Of a DNA stretch of 64,000 nt, positions 3,814 to 58,820 are shown one piece after another. Made by a program: the position numbers and the translations under genes. Position 1 is the first letter of the stretch; each line of letters starts with the position of its first letter. The DNA is from Octopus vulgaris (lineage: Eukaryota): contig OX597837.1 of NCBI GenBank assembly GCA_951406725.2, forward strand, positions 18,724,001 to 18,788,000. The letters run 5' to 3'. Below the pieces are notes generated by a model, which was not told the DNA's origin, did no database searches, and saw only the letters and a program-made list of their open reading frames with translations.

Positions 3814-3874
3814 GATAAAACTCCGAGTTTCAGATGTCGGGGCGGAAATCAACGCCGGCATCTCATCAGTTATC
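3814..3874 (-). ncRNA. Minimal type I hammerhead ribozyme motif
   Basis: Minus strand: GAUAA-CUGAUGA-GAUGCCGG..CCGACAUC-U-GAAAC-UCGGA-GUU-UUAUC. 5-bp stem I, 8-bp stem II with one mismatch and one extra U, palindromic stem III. Confidence 0.65.
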
Positions 3875-3907
3875 GGACCATCGAAAAAAATGCCTGTCAC
3901 AATTATT

Positions 3908-5517
3908 CGGGTGTCTCAGAAATATGTACATCCCTAAAAATTTTCAGTAAAATTTCCATTACTCTGATAATATCGAAGGAAATCAAGCGAAATTTATCCC
4001 GAATAAAATATATTATACATGCAAACATTATACATATTTAGAACACAAAACAATAAACATTTTCAATGATATGAATGAAATATTAATTTTCAAACGTCAC
4101 AAAAATATGTACACCCTAAAGGAAATTTGCTATACTCAATATTTTATCCACTTTTCTTTTTTTTTTATACTAAATACAGATATTGCTGATGATTTCAATT
4201 CTAATAAAATCATTGTCCTGGCATTTTTGCACCGGTCATAGTTATTGCATTTTCAGGAATTCTGATTTGTGTGCCATGGTGAAAATCGTCTTCATTGTGA
4301 TTAAAATGGCACCAAAAAGAAAAGAATTGTCTGAAGATTTGAAGAAAATTATTTTTAATTTGCACAAGAATTGTTTAGGATACAAGTTAATTAGCAAACG
4401 AATGCATATTAGCGTAAACACAGTTGCCAAAGTAATTCAGAAGTACAAAGCGACTAGACGGCTAAACAATAGAGATCGTCCTGGTCGTCGTTCTATTTTA
4501 ACTGCTCGTGATATTCCCCACATCCAACATTGCGAGATGGACGACAGGCGTCGAACCGCTTCATCTTTGGCCCAAGAAGTGTCTTCTGTTAATGGAAAGA
4601 GTGTGTCCGCCCAAACAGTTCGCCGAATGTGGTCTTCATGGACGCATTCCTCGTAGAAGCCTTTCCTCACTACCATGCATAAATCAAGTCGTCTTTCTTT
4701 TGCCAAAAGCTATGTAAGTGGAAGGAGTTTTGGAATAAGATTCCTTTTTCTGACGAGACTAAATCAACTTGTTTGGGTCAGTTGGCATTAAACGAGTATA
4801 GCAACGACCAGGTAAAGATGATAACGACAAATACACCGTGCCTACCGTGAAACACGGCGGCGAAAGTGTTATGCTTTGGGGATGCATGAGTGTGGCTGGT
4901 GTCGGAGAACTCACATTTATTGAAAGAACAATGGATTCAAGGCTTTATCGCGACATATTGCAGAAAACAATGTTGAAAAGTATCAAGGAACTTGGAAGAC
5001 ATTCCATGTTCCAGCATGATAATGACCCTAAACACACTTCAAAGATAACGACTAAGTTTTTGCCAGATAAAAAGGTAATGGTATTGCCTTGGCCTACCAT
5101 GTCACCTAATTTAAATCCAATAGAGTATCTGTGGGGTGTTTTGAAAAAGAAGGTTGAAGAGGGAAAACACCGCAAAGTAACACAGTTGAAAGACAGCATT
5201 CAGGATGAATGGAGGTCGATTTTATCGGTTTTATGCGAAAATTTGGTCGACTCTATGCCCAGAAGACTTAATGCAGTCATTGAAAACAAGGGCAGTCACA
5301 CCAAATATTGAATATAGCAAATAATCTTTTAGGGTGTACATATTTTTGTTTCGTTCATATCTTTGAAAATGTTTATTGTTTCCTGTTCCAAATTTGTATA
5401 ATGTTTGCATGTATATATTATTCAGTATAAGTTTCGTTTGATTTCCTTCGATATTATTAGAGTAATGGCAATTGTACTGAAATTTTTTAGGAGTGTACAT
5501 ACTTCTGTGAGATACTG
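3908..5517 (+). mobile_element. Tc1-family DNA transposon with long IR/DR-type terminal inverted repeats; frameshifted DD34E-type transposase (about 4306-5311)
   Basis: ORFs MAPKRKELSEDLK..GYKLISK and PTVKHGGESVMLWGCM..FQHDNDPKHTSK..WPTMSPNLNPIEYLW. TIRs of about 200 bp (about 3908-4120 and 5327-5517), each with inner and outer atgtacaccctaa-like direct repeats; right end gatactg|TA. Confidence 0.92.
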
Positions 5518-5556
5518 TATCTATAGTTTTATACACACACGCACACACACATAACT

Positions 5557-5820
5557 ATTACAATGAATACAGAGATCGGTATATTTGTATATCTTTTTTT
5601 TATTTCTACAGTGAATTATACAGCATATTTGATAAAAGCATGTCCGACACACGTTTCTGTTTCATAGCCCCTCGCAATTGCATTAGCATTCAGTTATTGG
5701 AATTACGAGATGGCTATGCAGCAGAAACGTGCGTCGGACATATTTGAATCAAATATGCTGTACAATTGACTGTCGAAATAAAAAGTATGCTGATTCACTA
5801 ATCTCCGTATTCATTGTAAT
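5557..5820. repeat. Diverged inverted repeat, probably an inverted Penelope tail
   Basis: attacaatgaatac..gtccgacacacgtttctg..catagcc versus ggctatg..cagaaacgtgcgtcggac..gtattcattgtaat. Each arm carries the hammerhead 3' half GAAAC-GUGY-GUC. Confidence 0.7.
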
Positions 5821-6473
5821 TTTATTGAATGCACACTCGGTAAACTACTTATAATCCAGCGAAGCGAACCCAGGATTTACTCACCGGATGAAATACATTG
5901 GGATTGTTTACCCTAAGTAACCCTAGATGCTCCGTATAACTCGATGCGGTTAGCCATAACCCGGATTATAACTGAGTGCTTGTACGGTAATCACCTGAAT
6001 ACTTTATCCTTCTCTATTCATTATATACGAGTCAACCTCTGGACATGATAGGGAAAAGCAGCATCTGTCTGATTTTATAAATATATATATTTATAAATGA
6101 GAAAATAATTGGGCATCTTGATACTTTTCTGTCAAACTCAGTTTGTGATGGGAAAATTTCCAAATACATTGATTAGAATTACATTCTCGACAACCAGATT
6201 GACATTCATCAAGCTTCAAATTATGGGAACGCGTAAAAACTATATTTTATTCAAATAAATCTAATTCACGTTATTACTGAACGTTAGCTTCCAAAAGTAT
6301 TCCAAGAACTTCAGAATCGGATCACAGTTTGGTTCATAATGACGATGGACATGCAGAAAATTAACAATTTCAAGAATAAAGCCTGTTTTTCAGACAGTAA
6401 TTTATTCTTTCAGTTAAATTCTACCAAATATAGAACTAAAATTATACACCTTTATAATTGCATTAGAATGACT

Positions 6474-6512
<39 letters not shown>

Positions 6513-6524
6513 CGTGTGTGTGTG

Positions 6525-6695
6525 AGGGCGCATGGTATAGTGGTTAGGGTATTGCACTCACGATCTAGCGACCGTGATTTCAATTCCTAGACCATCATAG
6601 ACCGGGTGGTGCGTTGTATCACGTTGCTCTGCCATCACTTCAACACCTGACGCGTGGTATACAATGCACCTATTCAGGTAAAGTTGATTTGATGC
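6525..6695 (+). mobile_element. tRNA-headed SINE, family C fragment
   Basis: gggcgcatggtatagtggttagggtattgcactcacgatc..tttcaattcc (A/B-box-like); related to the head of the minus-strand copy at 8395-8700. Confidence 0.55.
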
Positions 6696-6707
6696 ATATA
6701 TATATAT

Positions 6708-7074
6708 ACTAGCAGTATCGCCCGGCGTTGCTCGGGTTTGTAAGGGAAATAACTATAAAGCATTTTTAGATAGTTATAGCCAAAATATAGCAAAAAATGG
6801 GAAAAAAATGATGGTAAATTTTTTTGAGAGTTAAAAAGGTGGAGTTGCGTCCCCTAGACAGTCTGTGGTTTGTGTTTCTGATTCTCGACCCCATGTCGAA
6901 TTTATCGATTTTTTTTCAGAACTGGGGGAAATTTTCAAAATTTTCGCTGCGTTAGTTTTGAATTATGACATTGGGCTATGTGTGTGTCAAGTTTCATCAG
7001 GATCAGTTGAAAGCCGTGGTCAGAGTGAGGGTACAACCAAACAGACACACAGAAACACACACAGACAAACTGCC

Positions 7075-7085
<11 letters not shown>
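6708..7085 (-). mobile_element. Non-autonomous Helitron/Helentron-like element
   Basis: Minus strand ends in a GC hairpin (cccgagcaacgccggg) followed by CTAG; the other end is acagacaaac..tttatatata. A similar hairpin plus CTAG end lies at 43357-43384 on the + strand. Confidence 0.6.
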
Positions 7086-7134
<49 letters not shown>

Positions 7135-7239
7135 TTAGAGAGAGAGAGAGAGAGATAGAGCTAGAGAGAGAGTTAATGTGTGGCATGAACATTTGGTTGC
7201 GATAATCAAATCATTTGTGCAGGTCGTTCGGCAAAAGCT

Positions 7240-7536
7240 GATTTAAGGGAAATTTGGCTGTAGTTTCTAGCACATCCCAAGATCAAACTCCTTGTTTCTT
7301 TCTCACTCTCGCATGTATTTATGTTTTTAAATATTTTTCTTCTCATAAACACATTTATTTTATTAAAAACATTTGAAAATTTATGATATTTTTTCACCCA
7401 TCTTTCTGCTTATAATTTTAAATATTGGACAGACTGATAGTCATTTCTGGCATTTATCCACACTGATTAAGAAAAGTGCGGTGGGGCTATTTAAAAGATA
7501 CTTCAATTTAATAGCATACTTTTCTGTTACAAAATA

Positions 7537-7614
<78 letters not shown>

Positions 7615-7840
7615 CTTCGTAAGATCGAAGTGGGGTCAAAATTTAAATTACCGTTTTTTTTTATTTGGTTGTTGCTTTATATCCCACCAAAGGACCACGC
7701 GTTTGTTACTTCCGCATCATCATTCCATAAATGTGTTTATGGGGAGAAAAATATTGTAAAACGACAATACATATGAGAGTGAAAACCAGGAAGGTGGTCT
7801 TCGGATGTGCTAAAAACAACAGCCAAATCTCCCTTAAATC
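7240..7840. repeat. Inverted pair of the family seen at 11-276
   Basis: About 7240-7358 pairs imperfectly with about 7727-7840. Confidence 0.6.
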
Positions 7841-7941
7841 ACACACAATTTCCTCTGAAAATACACCCCCTCGGAAAATACACAGTACTGTGTATTGCAA
7901 CAAACAAGCTTTGCTGTAGCCTTTCTTACTATAGATGGACA

Positions 7942-7993
<52 letters not shown>

Positions 7994-8394
7994 AGGATTG
8001 AGATGAAGAATTACTTATTTAACAGGACAGAACAAAGTTGATTTCTTACTGAATTTTAAACTTGGACAATTTTCCTTGTCTAATTGTTTCCATGGGCTTC
8101 TTTTGCATTTGACTAAATAGGTACCAGGTCTTGTTGGTTTTGAATTGTCATCAAATGCTTCTCTAACTTTACTTTTTCAGGTAGGAGTGTCGGCTTTTCA
8201 CAAATCCACAAACCCATTTTTACCTCTAAGGAGGAGAGGTCGTTATATATCAGGCCTCCATTCTTTGATCTTTACTGCATTGGAGGTTCCATCAGGAGCT
8301 TGTGCTCTGCTGACATAACTCTCATGGGTCACTGAGGCCCACAAGCCATCCTTCCGTGAAAAGGACTGGACCTCACGTGAAACCAATATAACTG

Positions 8395-9200
8395 GTTACG
8401 ATGACAAGGGTTCCAGTTGATCCGATCAACGGAACGGCCTGCTCACGAAATTAACTTGCAAGTGGCTGAGCACTCCACAAATATGTGTTCCCTTAACATA
8501 GTCCACAGGGAGATTCAGCAGGACACAGAATGTGACAAGGCTAGCCCTCTGAAATACAGGTACATCTCACTTTTGCCAGCTGAGAGGACTAGAGCAATGT
8601 GAAGTTAAGTGTCTTGCTCAAGGATAAAAAACATCACTGCATATCGAACTCACAACCTTACGATCATGAGCCGAATACTCTAACCACTAAGCTAAGTGCC
8701 GTCATACATACATACATACATACATACATACATACATACATACATACATACATACATACATACATACATACATACATACATACATACATACATGCATGCA
8801 TGCATGCATACATACATACATACATACATACATACATGCATGCATACATACATACATACATACATACATACATACATACATACATACATACATACATACA
8901 TACATACATACATGCATGCATACATACATACATACATACATACATACATACATACATACATACATACATGCATACATACATACATAGATACATACATACA
9001 TACATGCATGCATGTAACACTCCGTCAGTTACGATGACAAGTGTTCTAGTCAATCTGATCAACAGAACAGCCTGCTCGTGAAATTAACATGCTAGTGGTT
9101 GAGCATTCCACAGACATGCTTACCATTACCGTAGTTCTCAAGGAGATTCAGCGTGACACAGAAAGTGAAAAGATTGGTCCTTTGAATTACAGGTACACCT
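8395..9200 (-). mobile_element. Two family C SINE copies (8395-8700, 9022-9200) separated by (TACA)n
   Basis: Shared gttacgatgacaag..gatcaac.gaac.gcctgctc..gaaattaac..gagattcagc..gacacagaa. Confidence 0.7.
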
Positions 9201-9209
9201 TTTTTGTCT

Positions 9210-9247
<38 letters not shown>

Positions 9248-9295
9248 AAATAAGTCAAAATAGAAAATGCTAAAATAATTTTATAAAGAACATTT

Positions 9296-9333
9296 CAGTA
9301 CCAGTTTCAGTCATTTTGAGACCTTTTCAACTG
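9296..9333 (-). ncRNA. Minimal hammerhead ribozyme motif with U3-A8 variant core
   Basis: Minus strand: CAG-UUGAAAA-GGUC-ucaaaau-GACU-GAAAC-UG-GUA-CUG. All three stems close; C3-G8 is replaced by U3-A8. Confidence 0.6.
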
Positions 9334-9437
9334 TAACGATTAAATAATTAAATTTAGAAAAATTAAAAGAAATGTTTTTTTAAAGGAATATTTGTATAGT
9401 GTTCAAATATAAGTGGCATTTTCCTTGTTTCTGCCTT

Positions 9438-9529
<92 letters not shown>

Positions 9530-15022: not shown

Positions 15023-16299
<1,277 letters not shown>

Positions 16300-16571: not shown

Positions 16572-16647
<76 letters not shown>

Positions 16648-16782
16648 TGAGAAAAAACCCACCTTTTATCAATTCAAAATGAAAAATTAAATTACACCAT
16701 CTAGAAAATTACATATAATAGAAATATTAAATATATGATAAAAATATAACGATGATTAAGTAATGTGCAAAATAATAAATAA

Positions 16783-16884
16783 AACGACACGTGTTTCGTG
16801 GCTATATTTAAAAAATGATTAGAGTAAAAATATTAGTAGAAGTAGTAAAATCACTTCAATATAAATATAGCCACTCATCAGGTT
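16783..16884 (-). ncRNA. Type I hammerhead ribozyme in a Penelope pseudo-LTR
   Basis: Minus strand: AAC-CUGAUGA-GUGGCUAUAUUUA..UAAAUAUAGCCAC-GAAAC-ACGU-GUC-GUU. Perfect 13-bp stem II, palindromic stem III loop, GUC triplet; lies downstream of a same-strand GIY-YIG relic. Confidence 0.8.
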
Positions 16885-17233: not shown

Positions 17234-18527
17234 ATACACAATGCTAGTACAAGCCATAAATACTGGAATCAAAAATAGGAAATAGTTCAAATATACACAA
17301 ACCCATTATATAAACTAAATTATTAAAATATATGTAGTATCTATAGATTTCATATTTCACTCAATAATATATTTGACCGAAATATTAATTAATATAAAAA
17401 CTAATTTACTTAAATGTAATACTAGTTGATAAATATACCACCTAATTATTAAATAATGTATTGTCAAACAAAATAATTCTCAAATTAAATTATATTTAAT
17501 ACGTTAAATCCCTTTATAAAAGTAATAATAAAGCATTCTAAATAAATAGATATAATAATTAATAACTATCATAACTTATAACTATCAATAAAATATATAT
17601 GAAAATAATAATATTTCAACAACAACAACAACAATAATAACAACAATAATAATAATAATAATAATCAAACCCAATATAATTCAAAAGCCAAATGATATTT
17701 ATAAGCAAAAACCGTTACTTAGCTTCTCGATGAAAATAATATAACTGAATTAGAAACGTAAAAAATATATAGGTCTTAGTGTTTATAAAAATTAAACGCG
17801 TGAAGACTTTATATAAACAAATAGAATAAATTATCAATGAAAATGGCGAAAACTATTTACTAATGAAAAATACGTAAAAGCTCTAAGCCCCATGAATTAA
17901 AGAAAGGTACGAAAAATAGTAGAACAAATGAACAATACACTATGAAGATATTCAATACAACCGACAGTCCACTACAAATCCAGTCAATAACAATCAAACC
18001 CAATATAATACAAACTCCAAATAATATTGATAAACAAATAACGTTACTAAGCTTATCGATTAAAATAATATAACTGGATTTTAAATGTATAAAAATAGGT
18101 CTTAGCGTCTTAATAAATATACACAATACTAGTACAAGCCATAAATACTGGAATCAAAAATAGGAAATAGTTCAAATATACACAAACTCATTATATAAAC
18201 TAACTAAATTATTAATATATATGTAGTATCTATAGATTTAATATTTCACTCAATAATATAGTTGACCGAAATATTAATTAATATAAAAACTAATTTACTT
18301 AAATGTAATACTACGTGATAAAATACCACCTAATTATTAAATAATGTATAGTCTAACAAAACTAATTCTCAAATTAAATTATATATAATACGTTAAATCT
18401 CTTTATAAAAATAATACTAAATCATATTAAATAAATAGATATCATAACTAATAACGATCGTAACTAATAACTATCAAGAACCTATAAATAAAAATAATAA
18501 TATTTCAACAACACCACCACTGTCACC

Positions 18528-18559
<32 letters not shown>

Positions 18560-18584
18560 CAATAATATAATAATAATGATGATG

Positions 18585-18616
<32 letters not shown>

Positions 18617-18626
18617 GATAATAATG

Positions 18627-18673
<47 letters not shown>

Positions 18674-18678
18674 TAATG

Positions 18679-18746
<68 letters not shown>

Positions 18747-19290
18747 TAGTAATAATCAAACCCAAAACGATTCAAAATCCAAATAATATTGATAAGCAAA
18801 AAACGTTACTTAGCTTGTCGATGGAAAAAATATAACTGAATTTTAAACGTAAAAAAATAGTTCATAGCGTTTATAAAAATTAAATGCGTGAAGCCTTTGT
18901 GTAAACAAATAGAATAAATTATCAATGAAAATGGCGAAAACTATCAATGAAAAATACGAAAACATCTAAAGAAAGGTGAGAAAAATAGTACAACAAATTA
19001 ACAATTTACCATGAAGACATCCAACTACAACTGACAGCCCACTATTAATTAATTCAATAACAATAACAACAACAATCAATCCCAATACAATACAAAATCC
19101 AAACAATATTGATAAACAAACAACGTTACTTAGTTTGTTGAGAATATAATATAACTGGATACTAAACGTTAAAGAATAGTTCTTAGCGTTTATAAGAAAT
19201 CAAACGCGTGAAGATGTTGTGTAAATAAATAGAATAAATTATCAATGAAAATGACGAAAACTATTTAATAATGAAAAATACGAAAAATAT
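17234..19290. repeat. Nested tandem duplications in the Penelope tail (about 885-bp unit plus about 330-bp subrepeats)
   Basis: atacacaat.ctagtacaagccataaatactggaatc at about 17234 and 18119; cgttacttag..cgcgtgaag..atcaatgaaaatg.cgaaaacta at about 17712, 18804 and 19124. Confidence 0.85.
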
Positions 19291-20279
19291 TTAAAACAAG
19301 TATTGCTTGTTTATCAGACCCTACATCACACTGTATCCGACTATTATTATTATTATTACCATCATTTCTACTAACCCAATCTACAACAAACCGTCAAATA
19401 CAGCCAAATGTATTCACAGCCGATTGCCTCCCTACCACCCCATCCCTCCCACCTCTCTCCAACTCACGAAGCCCAAACACATCTCACACTCACCATCAAC
19501 AAATAGTTTTCGTCATTTTGTTTAAAGTATTAATATAGCATATAATAATATAATAAATTATACTCTAATACTATTAAATCATTTCTACAATAAATAAATA
19601 ACATAAGACGAAATAAGGTTTAATACATACTGAAAGATAAGTTAAATGTATTATATAGGTACATAAAATTATTATAGCATTTAATTTTAAATGACTATTT
19701 ACTATAAATTTAAAGTCTAAATAATAAGTAAACTAAATATATATATATTATATTTAAATTAATTTATATTACTATAATAAATATATCTTTAAAATTTATA
19801 TAATTATTTATTTATTAGCTAAATCTATTATATAGGTAATTTAATTTATGTTTACATTTAATTTTACGTTCCTCCAATGAGTTTACTAACGCTTAGTTAT
19901 TATTAAATAATATTTCTTTAAATTCTTTATCACACAGTGAACAATAATTACTCCCTATAGAATATGATTTAGCCCTACAAATAATCTCCCAATTTAATTA
20001 ATATTTAATGGATCTAGATTTAAGGTCCCAAATATATTTACTGAGACCTGTTGAATTTATAAGATTTTTATTCTTAAAAGAATACATATGTTGAGGTACT
20101 CTAGATTTAATTTTATTCGAAGTGGACCCTATACAAATAGTATTTAAATTGTGATAATTCAAATTCTTATCATCTATTATAGTTACCAGACACTTATAGA
20201 CTACATTATCTAAATTACAATTATTATTAAATTTACATGTAGTCTTATCCCTACATGTCCAATAAATTAAATCTTGGTC

Positions 20280-20318
<39 letters not shown>

Positions 20319-20568
20319 GGAATCAATATTTAATCTATCTTTATAGATTTCTTTAATTTAAATATATTACATGAAAAAATAATATTACCAACATTATTCG
20401 TAGTTGAATACCCAACTCCAAAATTATCATTAGAAAAAATGTTATAGTATTTTTTATTATCCCTAATGGATATTTCAATTATATTAAAAATCTCTTTAAT
20501 AAGATTTGTTTTAACCTGAGCCCCAAAAGGAACGATTAACCATATTTTATTTTTATTTTTATCTTTTA

Positions 20569-20649
<81 letters not shown>

Positions 20650-21434
20650 CATCATTATTACTATATTTATTTGTAATATTAAATTTATTATCTTCATTAA
20701 TTGAATTAAATTTTATCTTATTTTTATTTTTATTTATATTACTCTTTTTATTTTTTATTCTAATATTAAATTTATGATTTACATCATCGACGATAGATAC
20801 CTAAATAAAATTTATCACAATTCATATAATTAGGTTAATCATTATAGGTTAATCACTAAAATTATTCTCCTTTAAATTATAATTGTTTACAAATACTAAA
20901 TAATTTAATATTATTATTGTACCCTACCTCATGCAGGGCTTTATTATAATAAGGTGCATGTTTATAAAAAATCTCTAAATCATAAGAAAGTAATGATATT
21001 CTTTTACCTACGTTATTTATCAACGATTTTTTAACAGAAAGTGGATGATTACAATAAGCATTAATATATCAGATTTTATGGAATGGTTGGGATTTACCCG
21101 TTATTAAATTAAAATTAACATTATATTAAAACTAACATTATATTAATTAAAATTATAGTCTATCAAATATATACGTTTTATTTATTATTTTGCACATTAC
21201 TTAATCATCATTATATTTTTTATCACATATTTAATCTTTCTATTATATGTAATTTTCTAGAAGGTGTAATTTAATTTTTCATTTTGAATTGATAAAAGGT
21301 GGTTTTTTTTTCTAATTTATATATATATTATATTTTGTGAAATTTGATTTAGTATTTCTAAATTGAATTTTTCCCTGTAGGTTTGGAATAATATTCCTTC
21401 ATATTATATATATATCTATATATTATATATATAT

Positions 21435-21773: not shown

Positions 21774-21895
21774 TGTTACTCAGAGTAGCCGTTCATCAGA
21801 CAGTTGTGATAATACAGACTACGAAAGAAATTTGTAATTTTTTAAAACCAGTTTATATTATCTAAAGAACGCTTACGTGAAACTCTGAGTAACTA
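21774..21895. ncRNA. Two broken hammerhead relics in divergent orientation
   Basis: Plus 21861-21895: CUAAAGA-ACG-cuua-CGU-GAAAC-UCUGA-GUA (G5 changed to A). Minus 21774-21802: UGU-CUGAUGA-ACGGCU-[deletion]-ACUCUGAGUA-ACA. Both share stem III ACUCUGAGUA. Confidence 0.5.
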
Positions 21896-23224: not shown

Positions 23225-23561
23225 TACTTACGACGAGCTTCTTCCAGTTTCCGCCTACCAAATCCATTCACAAGGCTTTGGTCGGCCGGAGTTTATAGTA
23301 GAAGACACTTGCCCGACTCGGAACCATGTGGTTGGGAAATAAACTTCTCACCACACAACCGCGCTTTTATATATTTGAGAATGGACTAAACAAAACAGGA
23401 AGAGACACGTGAGATGGAGAGTTGCTGAAGAGGTCACAGAATGCGTGACGAAAGATTTCAGAAAAGGATACTAAAATAATAACAATAAAGCTGAAGTGTA
23501 GCTCGAGCATATAGTGCGTATGTTTATTTGGCAAAAAGAAGATCATCCCAATATATAATGC

Positions 23562-39004: not shown

Positions 39005-39138
39005 GTAAAAACATGTTTCTTATGTTTTTCTTTTGCATATTCCAATTATTTGTAGAATGAGTTTGCTGTTATCATTGTTATTGCCATTGTGGTTCGTTGG
39101 TTTCTTTGAGTTAGCCAAATTATTATCAAGTTCGTCCT

Positions 39139-40621: not shown

Positions 40622-40840
40622 TTTTCTCTCTATTTACATATACAGGTTGCGTAAGGCATTTGAGGACAGACCTTTGTGAGTCATTGCTGCATTTTTTTTT
40701 TATTCAGAAAATATTGGCAGATCTTCAGCTTACTCAAGAAATGAAGAAGCATGCTGTTATTGTGGTTATAAAGGCTGAGCATAGCGATTCAGAAATACCT
40801 CAATTTTTAAAAGTTGCCAGACAAACCATCTTTCTGGGAC
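40622..40840 (+). mobile_element. Tc1/mariner-superfamily 5' fragment
   Basis: TA|cagg start; translation ADLQLTQEMKKHAVIVVIKAEHSDSEIPQFLKVAR resembles a transposase N-terminal HTH. Confidence 0.5.
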
Positions 40841-40844
40841 TCTG

Positions 40845-41400: not shown

Positions 41401-41618
41401 CTCTTTACCCCGCAGACTTAGTCCTCGGTAAAGACTTCGGAGTGTAAGTTCAAATCATTTGAGCGCCACCAAGTGTTTTCTATATTGAGCATCTCTGAAT
41501 CTCTTCTGTTAGTTGTCCATAAGTCATAAAGAAGGTCACTCTAAAAGAAATTTTGCGCAGTTATATATTTTATGTAGTCCAGTCGTATGTTCTTGGTTAT
41601 GGCATGTAATCAGTCGGG

Positions 41619-41679
41619 AAGTTACCATTAGTTTCACGTCTACTATTGTTTTTGGCAAAACAGACGACTCATCAGACCT
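41619..41679 (-). ncRNA. Type I hammerhead ribozyme motif, antisense within Dmrt2 intron 1
   Basis: Minus strand: AGGU-CUGAUGA-G-U-CGUCU..AGACG-U-GAAAC-UAAUG-GUA-ACUU. Intact core, 4-bp stem I, GUA triplet; about 250 nt from a same-strand GIY-YIG fragment. Confidence 0.72.
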
Positions 41680-41895
41680 GCTGGACGGAAGCACGTAGCC
41701 TCTTTGCGAACGGAAGTAAATATAGTCTTGGCCAGTTTGGTGGGGAAAACAAAACCAAGACAAAACGAAACAAAGGCTTTTTTCGATAAATGTATATAGA
41801 CGCGCGCGCGTGTTTCGTCTTCGCCTTAATAGTGTATGAGATAAAAGCAAAAACCAGAAAGTCAAAGATGAACAGATGGCAGAGGGGTTGCGAGC

Positions 41896-41956
<61 letters not shown>

Positions 41957-42507
41957 GAAAAGAGGTAAGGAGAGAAAGAGAGAGAGAAAGAAGAAAAGAG
42001 GAGAGAGAGAGAAAGAGAGAGAGAGAAAGAGAACCAGACAGCGAGAGGAGGTGTGACTTGTACTCTGTGTTGGGTGATTAGTTTTGACAGATAAATTAAA
42101 CATTCAATTAGACTTGCCGCAATAAAATCTGAAGGTGTCAGTGATGAGTCGGAGCTGTTGACATCCCAGTAGCTGCAGCAGTTACTTCCCAAATAGTGGT
42201 GGTGGCGGCGGCGGCAGTAGTAGTAGTAGTAGTAGTAGTAGTAGCAGTAGTAGTAGTAGTAGTAGTAGTTGTTGTTATTGTTGATATAACTTATCTAGAT
42301 CAGCTCTGATGGAGCAGCGCTATGATCCAGGGTGTTCCAGCTATTGTGAGGAACGAGAAGAATCGATCATACTTGTGAACTGGGGTACGTTATTAATCGA
42401 TCCTGGAAGAATGAAAGTTAACTTCGACGGGGTTTGAACACTGAGCGCAAAGCATTGTATTCGATGCTCTAACGATTCTACCAGTTGGTCGATTATATGT
42501 AATATAT

Positions 42508-42930
42508 CTTTTACTTCTTTCAGTCACTGAACAGCGGCCACGCTGGAGCACGGCCTTCAAAGGTTTAGTCGAACACATCGACCCCAGTACTTATATTCTA
42601 AGTCTTGTACTTATTCTATCAGTTCTCTTTTGCCGAATCGCTAAGTTGCGAAGACGTAAACGAACCAATACTGGATGTCAAGCGGTGGGGGTTGGGGTGG
42701 GGACAAACACAACACAAACATAAAAACACACACATAGATACAAACACGCATATACATACATATGCACATACACACATATACACACACATATACATATATG
42801 TCTTCAAAATGCACTCACAAGGCATTGGTTGACTCGAGACTATAGTAAATGACTCTCGCCCACCAAGGTGCCACGCAGTGGGACTGAACCCCGAACCGTG
42901 CGGATGGGAAGTAAACTTCTTACTGCACTG
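42508..42930 (-). mobile_element. Family A SINE, diverged
   Basis: Tail ttttacttctttcagtca through head caaggtgccacgcagtgggactgaacc. Confidence 0.75.
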
Positions 42931-43383
42931 CAGCTTCCTCTAGAAGGACAATGTTCAAGGGAGCAATGACTAGACATTTCCTCTGTGGATGTTCAAGGAA
43001 GATAACTATGTTCGGCTCTATTAACCGAAATATTTGGGCAGCACAAAGTGGAGTGGATGGGGTTATTAAAGGCAAATGGTGAAAGGAACAGACATGCTTC
43101 TGTTTTATTAGACCTTCTCAGCGAAGCATGTTCTACTCAGCAAGAGTACTTTGTGGGGTTAATAATCTTAATCTTTAGTTACAGTTTCTCATTAAAACTA
43201 CATAATAGGCAGAATTGTCGGATTAAGACAGCCGAGTGTTTTGAGGGAGATTTGGCTGCTATTTCTACCAGGTCTAGCTACCATGTACGGGTCTACACTT
43301 AATTTTCATTCACATATGCCTAACCGAAAACGATCACAGCCACATCATTCAAACGGACCGAGTGAAACCGGGTTTAGCTGCTA

Positions 43384-43438
<55 letters not shown>

Positions 43439-43526
43439 CACGGAGATATAAAGAGAAGGAAGAGAGAGGGAAAGAATAAGGAAGAGGTATGTAACACTAA
43501 TATATAACTTTATTCTCTTTTATAAG

Positions 43527-43663
43527 GCATCAAGCAACCGAGGCGAACAGCAATATGAAGAACAAGGGAAAGAATGCAGCTAACGTCCTGCAACAAAGGA
43601 AATTACTCCACCGAAATCTGCGGAATTTGCAACAACATACACTATCTAGAGAAATACTTTCCA
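43527..43663 (+). CDS. Dmrt2: Dmrt2-like coding exon 2 (not in the ORF track)
   Basis: Acceptor tttattctcttttataag, donor A|gtaag, 137 nt. Continues exon 1 in phase as (R)HQATEANSNMKNKGKNAANVLQQRKLLHRNLRNLQQHTLSREILS, matching the DMRT2 pattern RRQQATE...SLLAKSILE. Phases 2 and 1 join exons 1 and 3 with no frameshift. Confidence 0.88.
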
Positions 43664-44261
43664 GTAAGATTTACTTCTTAGCCCATTTTGAGATGTATGT
43701 ATTGCTGTTGTTGTAGCTTATTACCTGGTCAGTTATGATTAAACAGGCTTGTGTTAAAAAGTCCTGCATCCGTAATTGTTCAGCCTTATATTCAGACACA
43801 GTGTATATTCGAGTACCTTATCAAATGCGTCCTTTTTATTTTCATTTTCTCTTCTCTTGCTTTTGAAGACTGTCAATAAGATGTGATATGAGTGAGGTTT
43901 CGCTTTTAATTCTGCTTGAACAACAAAATCTTATATAGACCACCAAGAGTGATGTGGGTCCCTGTTGAGAACTAAGCATGCGCCAGTAAACTTGAGCACA
44001 ACAGTTGGGCAAGGACTGAAGCACCTGGGGATCAGGACAATTCTGGATCTGTGGGTTTCCTTAATTGATCCCAGTTGGAAGTTCTCCATCATTCATATAT
44101 TCGCATATTTTGTATATTATATATACTTTTGATCTCATCGCTTGTTTTCTCCTTTTCTTACTCTCATCTTTTTGTGCGCTCCATGCGCACAAAATGTTAA
44201 TTGTCCTTGTAATATCCCCTTCTTTGATGCCCTTGTGTCAAATGAAAAACCACCACCGCCG

Positions 44262-44327
<66 letters not shown>

Positions 44328-44399
44328 TTTTACTTTTCAGAGATCTCGGTCTTGTTCTGGTTGGTTCTGTGAGAGCGGACAGCAACCTGTTGTCAGAGA

Positions 44400-45240
44400 T
44401 CTCACAGGGCCTCTTCCCGCAAATACCTGGATGTTAACTTATCGTGGAAGACACTTAACAACCAAGCACAAATCTCAAAATCCTAGCTGTACCCAATAGA
44501 GCAGTTTTTTGGACCTGCCCTGCCCTCATTTCAATTTCAATTTCTCCGACATATTTCTCGAACCTGGTTGTTAGTGCTCCGAGTGCCTTTACAACTACTG
44601 AGACAGCAGCTACACTCCTCATTTCTCACATTCTTACAGTTTCGTCTTTTAGTAGTCTGTATTTCTCTATCTTTTCCAGCTCTTTGTCACCTACGCTTTC
44701 ATCTCCAGGTATTGCAATACCTATCATCCTGGTTTCCTTTTTTCTGGTCTCCGAGAATCGATTAGTGTCACGTTGGACTGTAAAATCCCACAGGATCGTA
44801 TATTTATTATTCTCAGTGATGGCCTCTGGTTCATGTTTATACCATTTCCGTGCTGTGCCCAGACCATACTTTACACACAGTCTCCAGTGAATGAACTTAG
44901 CCACATTTTCGTGTCTCCTTTTGTTGTGCTTTTGGGTCAGCTTGCTACACTCACTCACAATATATGAGATTGTTTCGTTTTTGCTGCCACACATCCTACA
45001 AAGGGGCGATTCACTGCCCTTATCTATTTGGAACATAGTGTAATTAGTTCTCAGAGTTTGTTCCTGGCGCTGCATATCAGTGCCTCAGCGCATCCTTTCA
45101 AATTACTATCATCATCATCATCATCATCGTCGTCGTCGTCGTCGTCGTTGTTGTTGTTGGGTCCTTGGGACCCAACAATAATTGGCACTATCTTCGCCTT
45201 CTCCATTTTCCATAGCCGGACTATTTCGTACTCTGAGGAT
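44400..45240 (-). mobile_element. Dong/R4-like non-LTR retrotransposon 3' fragment (zinc knuckle plus restriction-like endonuclease)
   Basis: ORF 44626-45075 CRMCGSKNETISYIVSECSKL..KRRHENVAKFIHWRLC..ILWDFTVQRD..IAIPGD..KELEKIEKY; second piece EIVRLWKMEKAKIVPIIVGSQG. Confidence 0.85.
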
Positions 45241-45659
45241 TGTATATATATATTTTTCCGCCTTCCTTCTTGATTATTCATGGGTCAAAGGAGCACGCAA
45301 CATCAACTTTATAGCACATGTGGTTCATCTCGTCCACTACCACTAGGTCCGTTCTGTTATGCACTAACACCTGATCTGTTTGGATTGGGGTTTTGCAGGC
45401 TTGCAGGCCTCCGACTCCGCCACTCTCTTCGGTTTGTGTTCATACTACGTTTTGACTCTCTCTCTTGCACTCTGTTCTGTACAAGATAGAATTGGCCATC
45501 TGTTGAATACGTATTGCCCTTTGTTCCATTTTTGTTGTCTTTTGAGTACTTGCGACTAATAAAGAAATGATTATTATTCAGTTGTCTTAATTTTTATAAC
45601 GTGTTTTCACCGTACAACCGACCATAACATTTTAGAGCTTGTGGATGCGCAGTGGTTTT

Positions 45660-46075
45660 CTCTTTTACTCTTCTACTCTTTTACTTGTTTCAGTCATTTG
45701 ACTGTGGCCATGCTGGAGCATCGCCTTTAGTCGAGCAAATCGACCCCGGGACTTGTTCTTTGTAAGCCTAGTACTTATTCTATCGGTCTCTTTTGCCAAC
45801 CGCTAAGTTACGGGAACGTAAACACACCAGTATCGGTTGTCAAGCGATGTTGGGGGGACAAACAGACACACAAGCATATACACACACATACAGATATATA
45901 TACATATACATATATACGACGGGCTTCTTTCAGTTTCCGTCTACCAAATCCACTCACAAGGCTTTGGTCAGCCCGAGGCTACAGTAGAAGACACTTGCCC
46001 AAGGTGCCACGCAGTGGGACTGAACCCGGAACCATGTGGTTCGTAAGCAAGCTACTTACTACACAGTCACTCCTA
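45660..46075 (-). mobile_element. Family A SINE (full length)
   Basis: Near-identical to 1561-1948; head aggagtgactgtgtagtaagtagcttgc on the minus strand. Confidence 0.88.
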
Positions 46076-46158
46076 GGTTATTGTGTTTTTGTGTTTTCTA
46101 CTGTATTGAAAAAACACTCTACGTAATATATGATATGTACAGTGATTAGCAGTGTCAC

Positions 46159-46429
46159 AATCCCTCGCCATATCGCGGTTCACCTTTCGCGGTTCACCTT
46201 TCGCGGTTCACCTTTCGCGGTTCACCTTTCGCGGTTCACCTTTCGCGGTTTATTATTTAAGCTTACATCGATTCCTCTGTGGTGTTGTTTTGCATTTATA
46301 ATAAAATAAATATATAAAAATCATAAAAATAAAAAATATATACAGTACAGTTCTGTTTCTGCTTCGCGGATTTTCACCTATCGCGTGGGGTTTTGGAACG
46401 TAACACCTGCGACAGTCGAGGGATTACTG
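46159..46429. mobile_element. Tigger-like MITE with an internal 14-bp tandem repeat
   Basis: aatccctcg ... cgagggattactg|TA; (tcgcggttcacctt)x5 plus a partial copy at 46173-46250. Confidence 0.65.
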
Positions 46430-46508
46430 TATTGTACATGTTTGTAAGTCCGGGGTCTATGGCTGTGCATTTACCTGCATGCTTATTATTGTGCCTATAT
46501 TAGAAGGG

Positions 46509-46547
<39 letters not shown>

Positions 46548-46551
46548 GTTG

Positions 46552-46642
<91 letters not shown>

Positions 46643-46645
<3 letters not shown>

Positions 46646-46845
46646 GGCGGCGAGCGGGCAGAATCGTTAGCACGCTCGACGAAATGCGTAGCGGTTTTTC
46701 GCCTGCCGCTATGTTCTGAGTTCGAGTTCCGCCGAGGTCAGCTTTGTGTTTCATTCTTTCGGGGTCGATAAATTAAGTACCAGTGTAATCGACTAGCCCT
46801 CCCACCAAGATTTCAGGCCTTGTACCTATAGTAGAAAGGATTATT
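46643..46845 (+). mobile_element. SINE family B inserted in (ATT)n just upstream of exon 3
   Basis: aaggcggcgagcgggcagaatcgttagcacg..tagtagaaaggattattatt; (ATT)n on both sides. Confidence 0.82.
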
Positions 46846-46883
46846 ATTATTATTATTATTATTATTAAATATTTATTTTTTAG

Positions 46884-47160
46884 GTTACCGCTCCCGACTG
46901 CAATGTCTACCTTCTCCCGAGAGTATTCGAGGAGTCCTGCCTTACATGAACGAAAGAATGCGCAAGCGGAGATGTTTTGCTGACAAAGAACTTGAAGTAG
47001 TGATGTACCAGAGAGAACAAGAAGCTGAAATTGTTGCCAAATCGAAATCTAACGTAGGTGCAGATGCACTTTCTGCAGTCGGCACTTTACGTTTACCTAT
47101 GGTCAATAACAATCTGCAAAATTATACAGGAGAACGTCGACCTGGACCACAGCATCAATC

Positions 47161-47226
<66 letters not shown>

Positions 47227-48253
47227 ACATCAACAGCAACAGCAGCAGCAAATTCAGCAGCAGCAACTCCAAACCCCAAAAGAATTCTTAGGAAGAATTT
47301 TCCCGGCCTTAAATCCGAACCTCTTAGAACTGGTGTGGCAAGGTTGTGGCGGTAGCTTAGAGCGAGCGATTGAACACCTAGCCACAGGTATCAAGTCAAG
47401 TCTGGTGGTTGCTTCTAACAGTGCCAATTTTATGAACTCTGCTGGATATTGTCCTGCCACCCTAAATCAACTAATCCAAACCTACTCCGTCCATTACCCG
47501 TTTCACACATCACCTTTCAATTCAGACCACCCGATATATTTTAATTCATCGTTGTCGCCACCATCCCCGATCCTTTCGTCCATCACTAGTGTGCCTTCAG
47601 GTAGAATTCCATCCACTTCCCCCTCGTTGACATCAAAGTGTCCGGAAGATACTTTGTCTCTTTCATCGTCCACTCTTTCATCTTCATCACCTTCGTTGCC
47701 ATCAACTATTTCCCCTTCTGTCACTAAAGACAAACTACAATTCCAAAGTGCGCAACAAAAAGTTAATTACCAACTGTTGTCCTTGAATTTGTACACATCC
47801 ACAAACCAGAAAGATCCAGACGGATTAGAGCAACGCAAAAGTGGTAAAAGCTACAGTGGCTGTGTTCACACATCTACAGAAATTTCTTCCAAAGTCAACG
47901 ACGGAGTACCAGGAAAAAACGTTGAGCACAGTGGTACAAGTAGAATGTCTCCTGGTGAGAGTGTATCCCCTACATGCCAGACACCGCTAGCATTGGTTAC
48001 AACTATCGGTAAAAATGGTCTCAGTAACATGAGAAAACTTATAACTACGGAAGAGCTGTTGAAAAGAAGATCAGCTTTTCAATGTTTAGTCAGACCATTA
48101 AATCGGCCGAAAGCAGCAGACATAAACGATAGCTACGCAGAAGGAGCAACAATTAATTCGTTTAAAATGGAATCTCAAACAGAAAGAACTTTTACTACTG
48201 AGCGTGCGAAGATCCCGCTTAAGTTCTCTGTAGCTGCATTGATTGGCAAATAA
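46884..48253 (+). CDS. Dmrt2: Dmrt2-like coding exon 3 (conserved RMRKRR..ADKELE box, polyQ, DMA/CUE-like domain, C-terminal eh1 motif)
   Basis: Acceptor atttattttttag then (S)YRSRLQCLPSPESIRGVLPYMNERMRKRRCFADKELEVVMYQRE, matching the DMRT2 box DRMRKRRAFADKELENIMLERE. In frame with the 435-aa ORF 46946-48253; ends PLKFSVAALIGK*. Confidence 0.9.
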
Positions 48254-53944: not shown

Positions 53945-54485
53945 TACCCTGATGCAGTACCAGGCAGTGCCTCTTGTGGCTTCTGATCTTAACTGATTGG
54001 AAGTGTTATTATGTACATTGTTTTGTCTTGGTATAAAAGATGGGCTACAGCAAATATTCTGATTTGCTTGTCAGTTGCTTGACCTTAACCAGTTGAGCAT
54101 GTCCCTTTAGTGGCTGACAATATGTGCATCTCCGATCGTGAGCAGAAGTAGTGGGGGAGCATCATAGCCGTGTGTTGAAAGGAATTCTGAGAGGTTTGGA
54201 TAATTCACCTTTGGAAACATGGGCGGTTCGTTAAACATCCTAACCTCTTATTCAGGGACCTTTTGAGCGGGATAGGTTACTCGGCCAGAAGAAAATTCTA
54301 ACTAGGCTCCACCTGCAAGGTCATGTGCCGTTTATCTTGATATGAGATCACCATGTTGCGCATATATGGTTGTGATGCATGTACTTAGTGTATCCTTATC
54401 AGACAGGTAGTCATGATGGGTATACTGGGCTTCATATATTTTACCCCAGTGTCACCTTGATGGCACGCACTGCTCTCTCACTCAA
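53945..54485. mobile_element. Non-coding interspersed element flanked by (AAT)n on both sides
   Basis: About 540 bp of complex sequence between two (AAT/GAT)n tracts; no ORF; single copy in this window. Confidence 0.45.
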
Positions 54486-55339: not shown

Positions 55340-56290
55340 AAAGATAGTCAAACCTTCATGCATAATTTTAACAAACTCAATACCCATATATGACAGAATT
55401 CCTTTAGTGATTAACTGGCACCGACATTTTGCTGGAATTTCAAAAGTGTTGCGTGAAAGTTACCAGCATGTTGCGGAAAAACATCCTCCCTTCAAACAGA
55501 TATTTCCTCAGCCGCCTATTGTAGCCTTTAGACAGAATAAGAATATAAGGGAATTATTGACCACTGTTTCCGATTCCAAGAAAACTAGCATTGGGGTATC
55601 TGCACAGCTGCAAGATAGGTAAGCCCTGTTCATTGTGCAACAATATGAGTCAAGTGAATTCCACCAGGAATCATAACAGAGGTGGGACATGTAGAGATTA
55701 CCATTTGGTGTACGCGGCAGAATGCACGAAGCACAACTTGATTTATGCTGGTTGTACAGAAATTAAACAAAGGGTTTAATAGACACAAATATGACGTCAG
55801 GTAGTTCGACAGAACTTGCCGAACATTTTGCTTCAAACGGCTGTAATTTTGAAAACGACTTGAAAACGCATATTCTCAGAAAATATTCTGAATCTACTTC
55901 ACTTTCAATACTCAAAATGCATGAGGAGAAATATGTTTGCGGGTTATTAACATCACGCCCAGGAAGAATGAATAAAATAACAGGAGAATTTCATCAAATT
56001 TACACAAAACTGTTTAATTAAATATTCTTCTTTTTCCTTTTCTTTCTTCTTTCCTCTTTTTTCTCTTTTTTCTGTCTTTTTTGTCTTTTTCTTTTCGCCA
56101 GTTATAAAATTGAAACGTAAAGACTGATTATGTCATTCCATCAACGTGTGAACGCTAGTTGCTCTCGTTCATACTTTAGATTTGAATATCTTTAATTTTA
56201 AATTTTTATCACTTTTTATTTCGAATTCGACAAAGATAGGCTTGCTGTCGAAATATCGTTCAACAAATGAAATATCTATATAAATAAAAC
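55340..56290 (+). mobile_element. Penelope-like linker plus GIY-YIG fragment with 3' tail
   Basis: Frameshifted ORFs PPFKQIFPQPPIVAFRQNKNIRELL, CKIGKPCSLC..GGTCRDYHLVYAAECTKHNLIYAGCT, STELAEHF. Confidence 0.82.
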
Positions 56291-57794
56291 AACATTGAGT
56301 CGGGTAGAAGGAAGAAGACGTCAGGGAAACACACGGTCTGCATGGCGTCAGACATTTTCAGGGAGTCTTGAAATTTATGAATAGACATTAAGGAATAAAA
56401 GATCTATTAAACTTGCAACCGAACGAGAAGGAGGGAGCAAAGCTGCTACCCCTGATGGGCAAATATACATAGGATGGGAGAACACTGAAGTAGAACTGCC
56501 GTGCGATGTGCAGACATACATGGGATAAGATAACTAATCTTTCTGCCATTGTAAAGGAGGCGCAGGATAACAGAAACCAAGTGTGAGGTTGAAGCACGCC
56601 TTGTATGAATAAAGTAGATGAGATAAGAAATAATTCGTAAGGTGAGACAAGGGAACGTAAAAGAAGAAGCGAGTTGTCAATTTAGTTTCTGGCCATACAT
56701 TTCTCTGTTCGGTGTTTTCTTTTTCATTGAGTTTTTCTCACTTGATTACACCCGTTCTCCACTCCACATCATATTGCCCATCACTCGTTGACGACTTGTA
56801 CACCACTGTTTACATGTCAGCTGTATCACTCAGCAAATGTGTTAAACAATAAATAAATATATATGAGAGCAGTTTTAACATAGAGATTTCACACGCGCAC
56901 GCACGCACGCACACACACACACACACACACACGCACGCACACATACACACACACAGACACGCACAGACACACACTCACGCAAATATTAAACTACATCCAA
57001 GCCCACGCCTCAGCACAGACACACAGCCTCACAGGCATACACTTCCGAAACTATGGTAATATCAAATTCCCTGTTTATTAATCAATCTTTCACTCTGTCT
57101 ATTTGTTTCTCACTGTGTTTTGTGTATGTGTGTGTATGTATATGTGTGTGGAAGTGTTTGTGTATATACACACACACACACACACACACACATGGACATG
57201 CATATGTGTATATAGAGGCGCATATTCATGCTCATACACGCATATATATAGCTCTTTGTGTGTGTGTCCGAGTGTGTGCGTCCGAGTGTGTGTGTCCGAG
57301 TGTGTGAATCTGAGTGTCTGTGTGTGTCTATGTGTGTGTATGTATGCGTGTATGTGTGAGTGTGTGTATCAGTGTGTATGGAATTGAATGGTGGAAGGGA
57401 ATGAAAAAGAAGCACATAAATGCGTACGTAGAAAATACACTCATTATCATGCTCACTCGCACACACACCCATACATACCCATACATACACACATACATGC
57501 ATACATACACACATACATACATACATACCCATACATACATACATACATACGTACATACATACATATTTTATCTTTTATTTGCTTCAATCATTGGACTGCG
57601 GCAATACTGGAGCACAACCCTCAAGGGCTTAGTCGAACAAATCGACCCCATTATTTTTTTAAGCCTGGCACGTATTCCAACGGTCTCTGCTCCCGAACCA
57701 CAAAGTTACAAGGACATAAACAGACCAACACTGGTGTTAAACGGTAAGGGAGAACAAGCACAAACACAAAGACACACATACACACTCACACATG

Positions 57795-57875
57795 CACACA
57801 GAACGACACACATAGAACACACAGAACGACACACATAGAACACACAGAACGACACACATAGAACACACAGAACGA
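57795..57875. repeat. 23-bp minisatellite, about 3.5 copies
   Basis: (cacacagaacgacacacatagaa)n. Confidence 0.85.
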
Positions 57876-58742
57876 TACACAAACACAGCTCCACGTGCAC
57901 ACAAACACACAAACACAGACACATACATACATGCGCACGCTCCACGCACGCACGCACACACACACGTACACACACTTGTATGTATGTAAACTGTGACTAA
58001 ATAACCACAGGTTCGCTTTTCGGTTCCAAGAGGGGTGCAACGCTACGTCTTCAGTCAACAATATTTGACGTTTAAAAGAAGAGTGAATGCCATACAGGAT
58101 GAAATGGAAGATCTTGGAACAGCCTGGACCATACACCAACGGGAGCAAACGATGCAAAGTTTGCTCGGCCGAGAGGGCAAAGATCCTAAAAAATTCGTTT
58201 CATCTGGGAGGGATGTTTTCTAAAATCCCAAAGTAAGATATTTAGTCGGTGCCCTCATGAGAGAAAATTTATGTTGGAGACATAGACTTCCTTGCTTCCT
58301 CACTAATGAACGGAAATCGTACATAACTGGAACCGCGCTAAGGGAGATAACTTCACCTCGCTTCGAAGAATTTCATTTCGCTTTTTTTTTTCACAAACTT
58401 GCTTACCAAAGCTGAATTTTTACCTCCACTACTAGATGGGTTATGTGCCTCTGGTCATCAAGTCCGGTGAGTTGCCAATATTGCTAAGACTAATAATAGA
58501 CCTGAAACCATTGGTAACTTTCCTAGCGAGCACATAATATATATGTGTGTGTATGGGCATGCGTATATATATTCATATATGCATAAACATGCACATATGT
58601 TTATATATATTTATATATTTGTATGTATATACATATATATTATATTATATTATATTATATTATACTATATTAGAGGAAAATCAAAACCAAGGCAGAACGA
58701 GTATCTCGAGTCATTCAGAATAATTTAATTAGGGTAGAGTGA

Positions 58743-58820
58743 AGTCTTACAGCCGTTTCTGGGAGAACGTAAGTGGTAGGTTAGTATGTCCACGCACTGG
58801 GAATTCCGTCATCAGAGACC
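58743..58820 (-). ncRNA. Type I hammerhead ribozyme motif with weak stem II
   Basis: Minus strand: GGUCU-CUGAUGA-CGGAA..UCCCA-GAAAC-GGCU-GUA-AGACU. 5-bp stem I and intact core; the base of stem II is imperfect. Confidence 0.65.

Follow-up and report, generated by a model that had tools for sequence, protein, structure and literature searches.

Minimal hammerhead motifs in an Octopus vulgaris locus and their link to Penelope-like elements

Introduction

Metazoan Penelope-like elements (PLEs) carry minimal type I hammerhead ribozymes with a dimer design, for which no cleavage of a monomer and low cleavage of dimers were reported (Cervera and de la Pena 2014, PMC4209133). The Hydra clade of PLEs is recognized by a CxCX5C linker and by CxxC and CxH endonuclease motifs (Craig et al. 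2021, PMC8557442, section 11), and its hammerheads, listed in File S2 of that paper, include Hydra-1_Obim of Octopus bimaculoides. In the Poseidon element PAc of Anolis, cleavage needs protein (Frangieh et al. 2024, PMC11167929). The giant squid genome paper gives 235 Rfam hammerheads (PMC6962438), and the Octopus vulgaris repeat annotation reports active Penelope families, its main text containing neither "hammerhead" nor "ribozyme" (PMC13282606). Here we analyse a 64,000-nucleotide (nt) stretch of the O. vulgaris genome (assembly GCA_951406725.2, contig OX597837.1, positions 18,724,001 to 18,788,000; hereafter the window), in which an initial annotation made from the letters alone had listed five hammerhead motifs and three broken or half copies, named here by their first positions. 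In all likelihood each motif is a type I hammerhead in the 3′ terminal repeat of a PLE, left as a 5′-truncated insertion beside a microsatellite, and most of the window copies are likely inert.

Results

Hammerhead cores and chance controls

All eight stretches were present where the annotation had placed them. The five main motifs (3814, 9296, 16783, 41619 and 58743) lie on the minus strand, which the annotation had not stated, and 23421-23465 lies on the plus strand. Both core boxes (C3/U3-UGANG/A-A and GAAA) and the NUH triplet occur in 5/5 main motifs, as had been claimed. The further claim of three closable stems stood cleanly for 16783-16884 and 9296-9333 only; in 3814-3874 stem II closes once a 1-nt bulge is allowed at its base. 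The window copy of 41619 has a G.U pair and then a bulge, and that of 58743 has C opposite A in a decayed stem II; both fail the descriptor because the stem II base is broken in these copies, and stems do close in copies L013 and L028 of the 58743 family. Three window motifs pass the descriptor; the other two, 41619 and 58743, belong to real families as copies that have decayed. Stem III (segment 15.1-16.1) can pair with itself at 8/8, 6/6, 8/8, 8/9 and 8/9 positions in the five motifs, and a self-complementary stem III (6/6, 8/8 or 8/9) is found in all eight window families, so the short palindromic stem III described in the annotation holds.

Short consensus motifs in AT-rich DNA could be chance matches, and 100 local dinucleotide shuffles per descriptor setting served as the null for the window. 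The strict descriptor gave 2 matches (16783 and 9296) against 0.11 in shuffles, with 0/100 shuffles reaching 2; the bulge-tolerant descriptor added 3814 and gave 3 against 0.65, with 2/100 shuffles reaching 3; and the descriptor with a palindrome filter gave 3 against 0.18, with 0/100 shuffles reaching 3. Equal density in shuffled sequence, which the annotation had named among its refuting conditions, was found neither here nor in a genome sample (22 against 3.4, see below). A chance origin also has to account for PLE families that are unrelated and yet each hold their motif at the 3′ end, and for a palindrome in all eight families although the first descriptor did not require it. What speaks for chance is that a 4-bp stem I without a bulge yields 0 window matches (0.06 in shuffles), that loose settings give 4-6 chance matches per 800 kb, and that the Rfam search, also proposed in the annotation, found no hammerhead in the whole window at the gathering score, with signals appearing only in small slices (Hammerhead_1 with 13.7 bits, E 1.9, in 16784-16883; HH9 with 13.2 bits, E 1, in 9279-9344). 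Taking these observations together, a chance origin of the motifs has almost no credibility, and for the five families it is already refuted by the shuffle controls and the family structure.

Rewired hammerheads that are not circular permutations were considered and rejected, as an any-order descriptor gave 3 weak window matches against ~2 per shuffle (six orders summed), core-opened forms not being modelled. When two strands were cofolded at minimum energy, their stem III palindromes paired with each other in only 4/8 sequences, which is weak evidence.

Repeat families with fixed 3′ ends and inverted partners

Searches of the 2.8-Gb assembly (227 contigs) with its own sequences, in which 40 matches were scored per family, placed each of the five motifs in a different dispersed repeat. 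First-look candidates, whose totals are lower bounds and not copy numbers, amounted to at least 2535 for the 3814 family, 1621 for 16783, 1488 for 9296, 1353 for 58743 and 128 for 41619. The three stretches noted as broken or half copies proved to be members of hammerhead-shaped repeat families as well, with at least 1112 (23421), 141 (5640) and 17 (21774) candidates. Identity was 71-82% in the 41619 family and 99-100% for the best 40 matches of the 9296 family. In the five main families (25-30 loci each), shared sequence stops 50-150 nt downstream of the motif and extends variably upstream, and the 3′ end of the 9296 family adjoins a (TA)n or (CA)n run or bears a short tail.

Both core boxes are intact in 27/38 (58743), 23/32 (16783), 23/29 (3814) and 14/29 (41619) aligned family rows, which include inverted partner pieces, one duplicate locus being left out of the 58743 set. 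Window copies carry lesions absent from sister copies; in the 16783 window copy a small deletion shortens stem I to 3 bp. The C-opposite-A mispair is the family state in the 58743 family (A in 36/38 rows), C/A or A/A mispairs recur in other families of this genome, and the whole 23421 family has a mismatch or bulge at the stem I base. Decay affects at least two of the five window copies, and most window copies are probably inert.

Among the eight family sets, paired copies were inverted in 47 cases and on the same strand in 1 (1132 nt apart), a count in which overlapping loci may be entered twice, and no head-to-tail arrays of 150-1000-nt non-coding units occurred in the window or in these sets. 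These data bear on the retrozyme-like alternative raised in the annotation, under which short non-coding hammerhead repeats are transcribed in tandem, cut to monomers, circularized and re-inserted. Molluscs do have retrozymes (PMC7229834), whose origin has been argued to lie in the terminal repeats of PLEs (bioRxiv 10.64898/2026.07.22.740005), the window copies of four families are just 120-260 nt long without an open reading frame (ORF), and the 5640, 21774 and 23421 families lack a coding link in the flanks searched. The predominance of inverted pairs is nevertheless at odds with retrozymes, as are 5′ ends that are staggered and not unit-length, the continuation of all five main families into PLE ORFs, and the 4.4-kb coding unit of the sole tandems found. 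Given that no short head-to-tail arrays were seen in the window or the eight family sets, we consider it improbable that the motifs are retrozymes and favour truncated PLE 3′ ends.

Coding links to Penelope-like elements

All five main families join a GIY-YIG coding region in longer copies, and two also join reverse transcriptase (RT) sequence, in agreement with the annotation's proposal of several independent Penelope-like families. Its statement that most lack coding sequence applies to most window copies, because these are 5′-truncated, and not to the families themselves.

In longer copies of the 9296 lineage, RT, a CX4CX2C linker and GIY-YIG lie ~600 nt upstream of the motif (Pfam GIY-YIG E 3.9e-5, RVT_1 E 3.5e-8). 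For the 3814 family, stretches L139 and L146 run continuously from a thumb/GIY-YIG ORF through the 3′ untranslated region (UTR) to the motif. The 16783 motif has the window's own broken thumb-linker-endonuclease ORF, which is interrupted by stops and microsatellites and matches the L146 endonuclease (tblastn E 3e-14), together with an inverted copy of its tail, and inverted flanks of this kind are typical of PLE insertions. In the 41619 family an endonuclease remnant lacking the thumb stands 166-435 nt upstream on the same strand in 9/25 loci, in which only the C-terminal Hydra motifs could be read and the CxCX5C linker was not seen. The upstream sequence of the 58743 family translates to a decayed endonuclease with CxCX5C, CxxC and CxH remnants, the motif being downstream of the endonuclease on the same strand in 4/8 stretches and inverted in one. 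Thumb and endonuclease remnants were found for the 3814, 16783 and 58743 families, and CxCX5C, CxxC and CxH were read in translations of L139, L146, L374, L376 and L377, the linker being degenerate in the window ORF.

Motifs, in place of trees, suggest that 3814, 16783, 41619 and 58743 are Hydra-type PLEs, and a Penelope/Poseidon label for these families was dropped in view of the motif definitions for Hydra in PMC8557442. The 9296 lineage appears to fit the Neptune/Nematis group (CX2-5CxxC linker, GxKF and DKG), with the Neptune label likewise taken from motifs and not from a tree. The membership of the five families, their fixed 3′ ends, variable 5′ ends and inverted partners, and their RT/GIY-YIG link are direct observations.

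The individual sites are collected in Table 1. The window holds nine hammerhead-derived sites, one of which, a dead hammerhead related to the 41619 family at the end of a truncated PLE, was not in the initial list. The fragment downstream of the 41619 motif may be a second insertion or a deleted tandem.

Table 1. Hammerhead-derived sites, associated PLE sequence and other features of the window (cut positions are predicted; PLE clades are read from motifs)
Feature	Coordinates	Strand	Details
Type I hammerhead	3814..3874	-	CUGAUGA core, bulged stem II, ACUC-G-GAGU stem III, GUU site; predicted cut 3819/3818; ~120-nt 5′-truncated Hydra-type PLE 3′ end, about 3775-3895
Minimal type I hammerhead	9296..9333	-	U3:A8 core (UUGAAAA), G.U at 10.1-11.1; predicted cut 9299/9298; young Neptune-type PLE, ~210 nt of its 3′ end, about 9239-9450
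Best-formed hammerhead	16783..16884	-	13-bp stem II, G10.1-C11.1, ACACGUGU palindrome, GUC site; predicted cut 16786/16785
3′ UTR of the 16783 element	17300-19300	-	about 3 kb, 22-24% GC, made of internal imperfect repeats
Decayed PLE ORF, 5′ of the 16783 motif	19822..21065	-	RT thumb, linker, GIY-YIG with CxxC and CxH (Hydra type)
Inverted copy of the 16783 element's 3′ tail	21174..21333	+	93% over 161 nt to 16629-16786
Decayed hammerhead	41619..41679	-	ACCA-A-UGGU-type stem III, GUA site; old Hydra-type PLE 3′ end, about 41508-41771
PLE endonuclease fragment	41245-41349	-	~270 nt downstream of the 41619 motif, same strand
Hammerhead, decayed stem II	58743..58820	-	C opposite A at stem II base; ~260-nt Hydra-type PLE 3′ end, about 58660-58920
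Two 3′ halves (GAAAC..GUC and tail), head to head	5640..5740	.	upstream box non-canonical in most family copies
Inverted pair, broken copies of a compact ~42-nt hammerhead family	21774..21895	.	3-bp stem II, ACUC-U-GAGU stem III
Hammerhead-like family member	23421..23465	+	both boxes, extra nt before G10.1, 5-bp stem II
Truncated PLE	57997..58523	+	broken GIY-YIG C-terminus about 57997-58270 (tblastn E 2e-11), then core-mutated hammerhead 58456-58523
Repeat c21	54096-54232	+	common dispersed repeat with a CUGACGA-like word and a GAAAC hairpin
DMRT gene, DMA-containing type	38226-48253	+	DM exon ends 39004, DMA exon from 46884
U4 snRNA 5′ part	35374-35455	+	69.6 bits in Rfam; a truncated retrocopy seems probable
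Broken Tc1-like and mariner-like transposase remnants	4174-5311, 15597-15998	+	
152-aa open frame	44626-45084	-	resembles the C-terminus of a long interspersed nuclear element ORF; no Pfam match

Genome-wide density

A sample of 80 evenly spaced 10-kb stretches (800 kb) gave descriptor counts of 15 against 3.9, 12 against 0.2 and 23 against 6.3 in shuffles (10 shuffles), and with the palindrome filter 22 intact-looking motifs against 3.4 expected (8 shuffles). A family library, partly built from the same sample stretches and missing some families, matched the sample 75 times; once 7 matches belonging to repeat c21, 2 of low complexity and 1 motif that probably arose by chance had been removed, 65 were left, or one family copy per 12 kb, close to the one motif per 10 kb estimated in the annotation. 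Extrapolation with a wide error would put the genome total at ~40,000-65,000 intact-looking and ~200,000 decayed hammerhead-derived copies. The window has 11 library rows in 64 kb, ~2x the sample rate, but the window motifs were in the library; by descriptor alone the window is not unusual, with 3 motifs against about 1.8 expected from the sample rate.

Several features of the sampled families stand apart. The commonest, cluster c2 (28/75 matches), often reads CUGUNGA, a form in which U replaces the A6 that is normally invariant and which is shared by many copies of similar sequence (for example L220 741-795, L225 9330-9381 and L276 2713-2770), as if a subfamily had spread after the core change. 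Other families have U15.2-A16.2 and a longer (9-12 nt) self-complementary stem III (L215 3419-3479, L220 1549-1609, L253 243-306 and L280 9817-9875). Repeat c21 was rejected as a hammerhead: the descriptor matched one genomic copy, and the stems fail in most copies.

The genome-wide rate also bears on a role for the host, in which the motifs would be kept as regulatory ribozymes, for example trimming or destabilizing DMRT transcripts. Nine hammerhead-derived sites in one window and the location of the 41619 motif in a DMRT intron (39005-46883, with the DM exon before it and the DMA exon after it) would suit such a role. That motif, however, is antisense to the gene and decayed, window copies bear lesions that their sister copies lack, and 3 motifs in 64 kb is in line with the 22 found in the 800-kb genome sample, which makes retention by the host very improbable. 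The window is 22-43% GC and rich in microsatellites.

An apparently intact sister family of the 9296 motif

With the RT of the 9296 lineage as protein query, 7587 candidates were obtained, and among the best 150 most had 93-97% identity, many in a 784-aa open frame. In 20 long stretches (L350-L369), the sister subfamily unit is 4391 nt with two ORFs (for example L365 900-5290), and tandem arrays are found on contig G000:C9 in L350-L353. ORF1, 411 aa from its first Met and without a Pfam match, overlaps ORF2 (-1 frame) at a U-UUU-UUA heptamer. ORF2 has Pfam RVT_1 and GIY-YIG, GxKF and DKG motifs and a CX4CX2C linker; since it has no Met before the GxKF motif, a -1 frameshift is likely. The sequence immediately after the slippery heptamer is not predicted to form a stable structure (-0.9 kcal/mol). 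The sister hammerhead is of the 9296 type but with G-C in place of G.U at 10.1-11.1.

Within the 20 long stretches, 26/27 3′ ends fall at one of two points, 64 or 98 nt beyond the predicted cut, and inverted sister insertions mostly have one 64-nt and one 98-nt end each. In the same stretches no 5′ end was found at the cut site; upstream repeats begin about 130-250 nt before the cut, and in tandem copies the predicted cut site is 123 nt upstream of the ORF1 ATG. Ends defined by the cut site were also rejected for the 9296 family, in which 5′ truncations did not cluster at the cut and the nearest were 13 and 16 nt upstream, with a query that held one base upstream of the cut and so works slightly against copies whose first base is at the cut. 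The RNA that was copied therefore spans the ribozyme, suggesting a sister-family template that was likely uncut or re-joined. Assembled contigs of four runs, presumed to be RNA, cover the family with many differences; being uninformative on ends, strand or level, they were given no weight.

We raise, as a tentative and rather doubtful possibility, that the 9296 motif points to a two-ORF Neptune-type element that is active today, with over a hundred near-identical copies, some in tandem. Its U3:A8 hammerhead would then cleave tandem transcripts at a point 123 nt ahead of the ORF1 start, giving mRNA or a unit-length circle, uncut or re-joined RNA being the template from two fixed starts. If so, it would offer a natural intact system for testing the in vivo role of PLE hammerheads. 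Through its fixed 3′ ends past the cut and the lack of ends at the cut, the young Neptune-type family gives a clean genomic read-out on whether cleavage matters for PLE copying.

Discussion

The observations fit a scheme in which the element protein would nick AT-rich microsatellite DNA, and reverse transcription would start at fixed points shortly downstream of the ribozyme, on uncut or re-joined RNA. Synthesis would usually stop early, so that the ribozyme-bearing tail would be copied most often, which would explain the high motif density. The ribozyme of a source element may cut only when two copies pair via the palindromic stem III or when protein helps, and cutting would trim long tandem transcripts to unit length, with lone copies that lack a partner presumably decaying neutrally. 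We conclude that the likely role of the ribozyme is to trim the tandem transcripts made by source elements, lone copies being passengers.

Several points weigh against this account of the motifs as PLE 3′ ends. The case rests on sequence, with cleavage predicted, and the loci examined were the best-scoring 18-30 per family and not random draws. Cofolding pairs the palindromes between strands in just 1/5 window copies, and the window copies of 9296, 41619 and 58743 are predicted to misfold as monomers. Clades were assigned by motifs and not by a tree; three pieces of the window ORF remnant had no Pfam match and one protein search with the window endonuclease piece found no homologue, so the clade of this ORF rests on tblastn and motif reading. 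No upstream coding link was found for the 5640, 21774 and 23421 families in 18-20 loci each with 1.5-kb flanks.

The annotation had presented the set as previously unannotated and dense at this locus, a description that does not survive comparison, as the density is genome-wide, PLE minimal hammerheads are described in PMC4209133 and an octopus Hydra-clade hammerhead in PMC8557442. The kind of motif and its arrangement are already described, and the families here are new members. What stands out is the scale, with an extrapolated tens of thousands of intact-looking motifs while Rfam misses all window motifs at its gathering score. A literature search that covered neither subscription journals nor Repbase nor figures returned no genome-wide octopus hammerhead census and no account of the two-ORF family.

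The motifs resemble the PLE minimal hammerheads of PMC4209133 in their short stem I, long or variable stem II, palindromic stem III and U3-A8 core, in an extra nt before 10.1, in their occurrence mostly as single truncated copies of many families per genome, and in opposite-strand pairs 100-700 bp apart. The ~40,000-65,000 copies estimated here exceed the 2,000-9,000 given there for schistosome, coelacanth and Xenopus, a rough comparison because the descriptors differ.

Similar to Hydra-clade PLEs (PMC8557442), the Hydra-type families have CxCX5C, CxxC and CxH motifs, (TA)n targets and inverted flanks, and their hammerheads share odd-length palindromes (ACCA-A-TGGT and ACTC-G-GAGT) and GUU sites. 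Unpaired bases at the foot of stem II also have counterparts there, with C/A in PLE-X1_cBra and U with U or C in Hydra families, and given such features in File S2 we do not regard the C/A mispair of the 58743 family or the bulges in 3814 and 41619 as new variants. By contrast, all four Hydra-type families differ from the listed octopus motif in stem I and stem II sequences, and two of them have long 1.5-3 kb repetitive 3′ UTRs.

The 9296 lineage and its sister family share with Neptune-type PLEs the GxKF and DKG motifs, RT, CX4CX2C linker, C-terminal GIY-YIG, (TA)n target, one-sided tail, and tandem and inverted copies. The sister family differs in its 411-aa upstream ORF overlapping ORF2, whereas the abstract of PMC8557442 gives a single ORF for canonical endonuclease-positive (EN+) PLEs; the legend of Fig. 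1 in that paper mentions a frameshift-separated ORF1. As in PAc (PMC11167929), reverse transcription would start internally at fixed points that define the genomic tail, with uncut RNA as the main substrate; the PAc ribozyme overlaps the start of the ORF, whereas the cut site here precedes the ORF1 start. Finally, animal retrozymes, which are non-long terminal repeat elements, are alike in their type I hammerheads, AT-rich sequence and dispersed monomers (PMC7229834; bioRxiv 10.64898/2026.07.22.740005), but the five main families here differ from them in lacking short tandem arrays and in being directly tied to coding PLEs.

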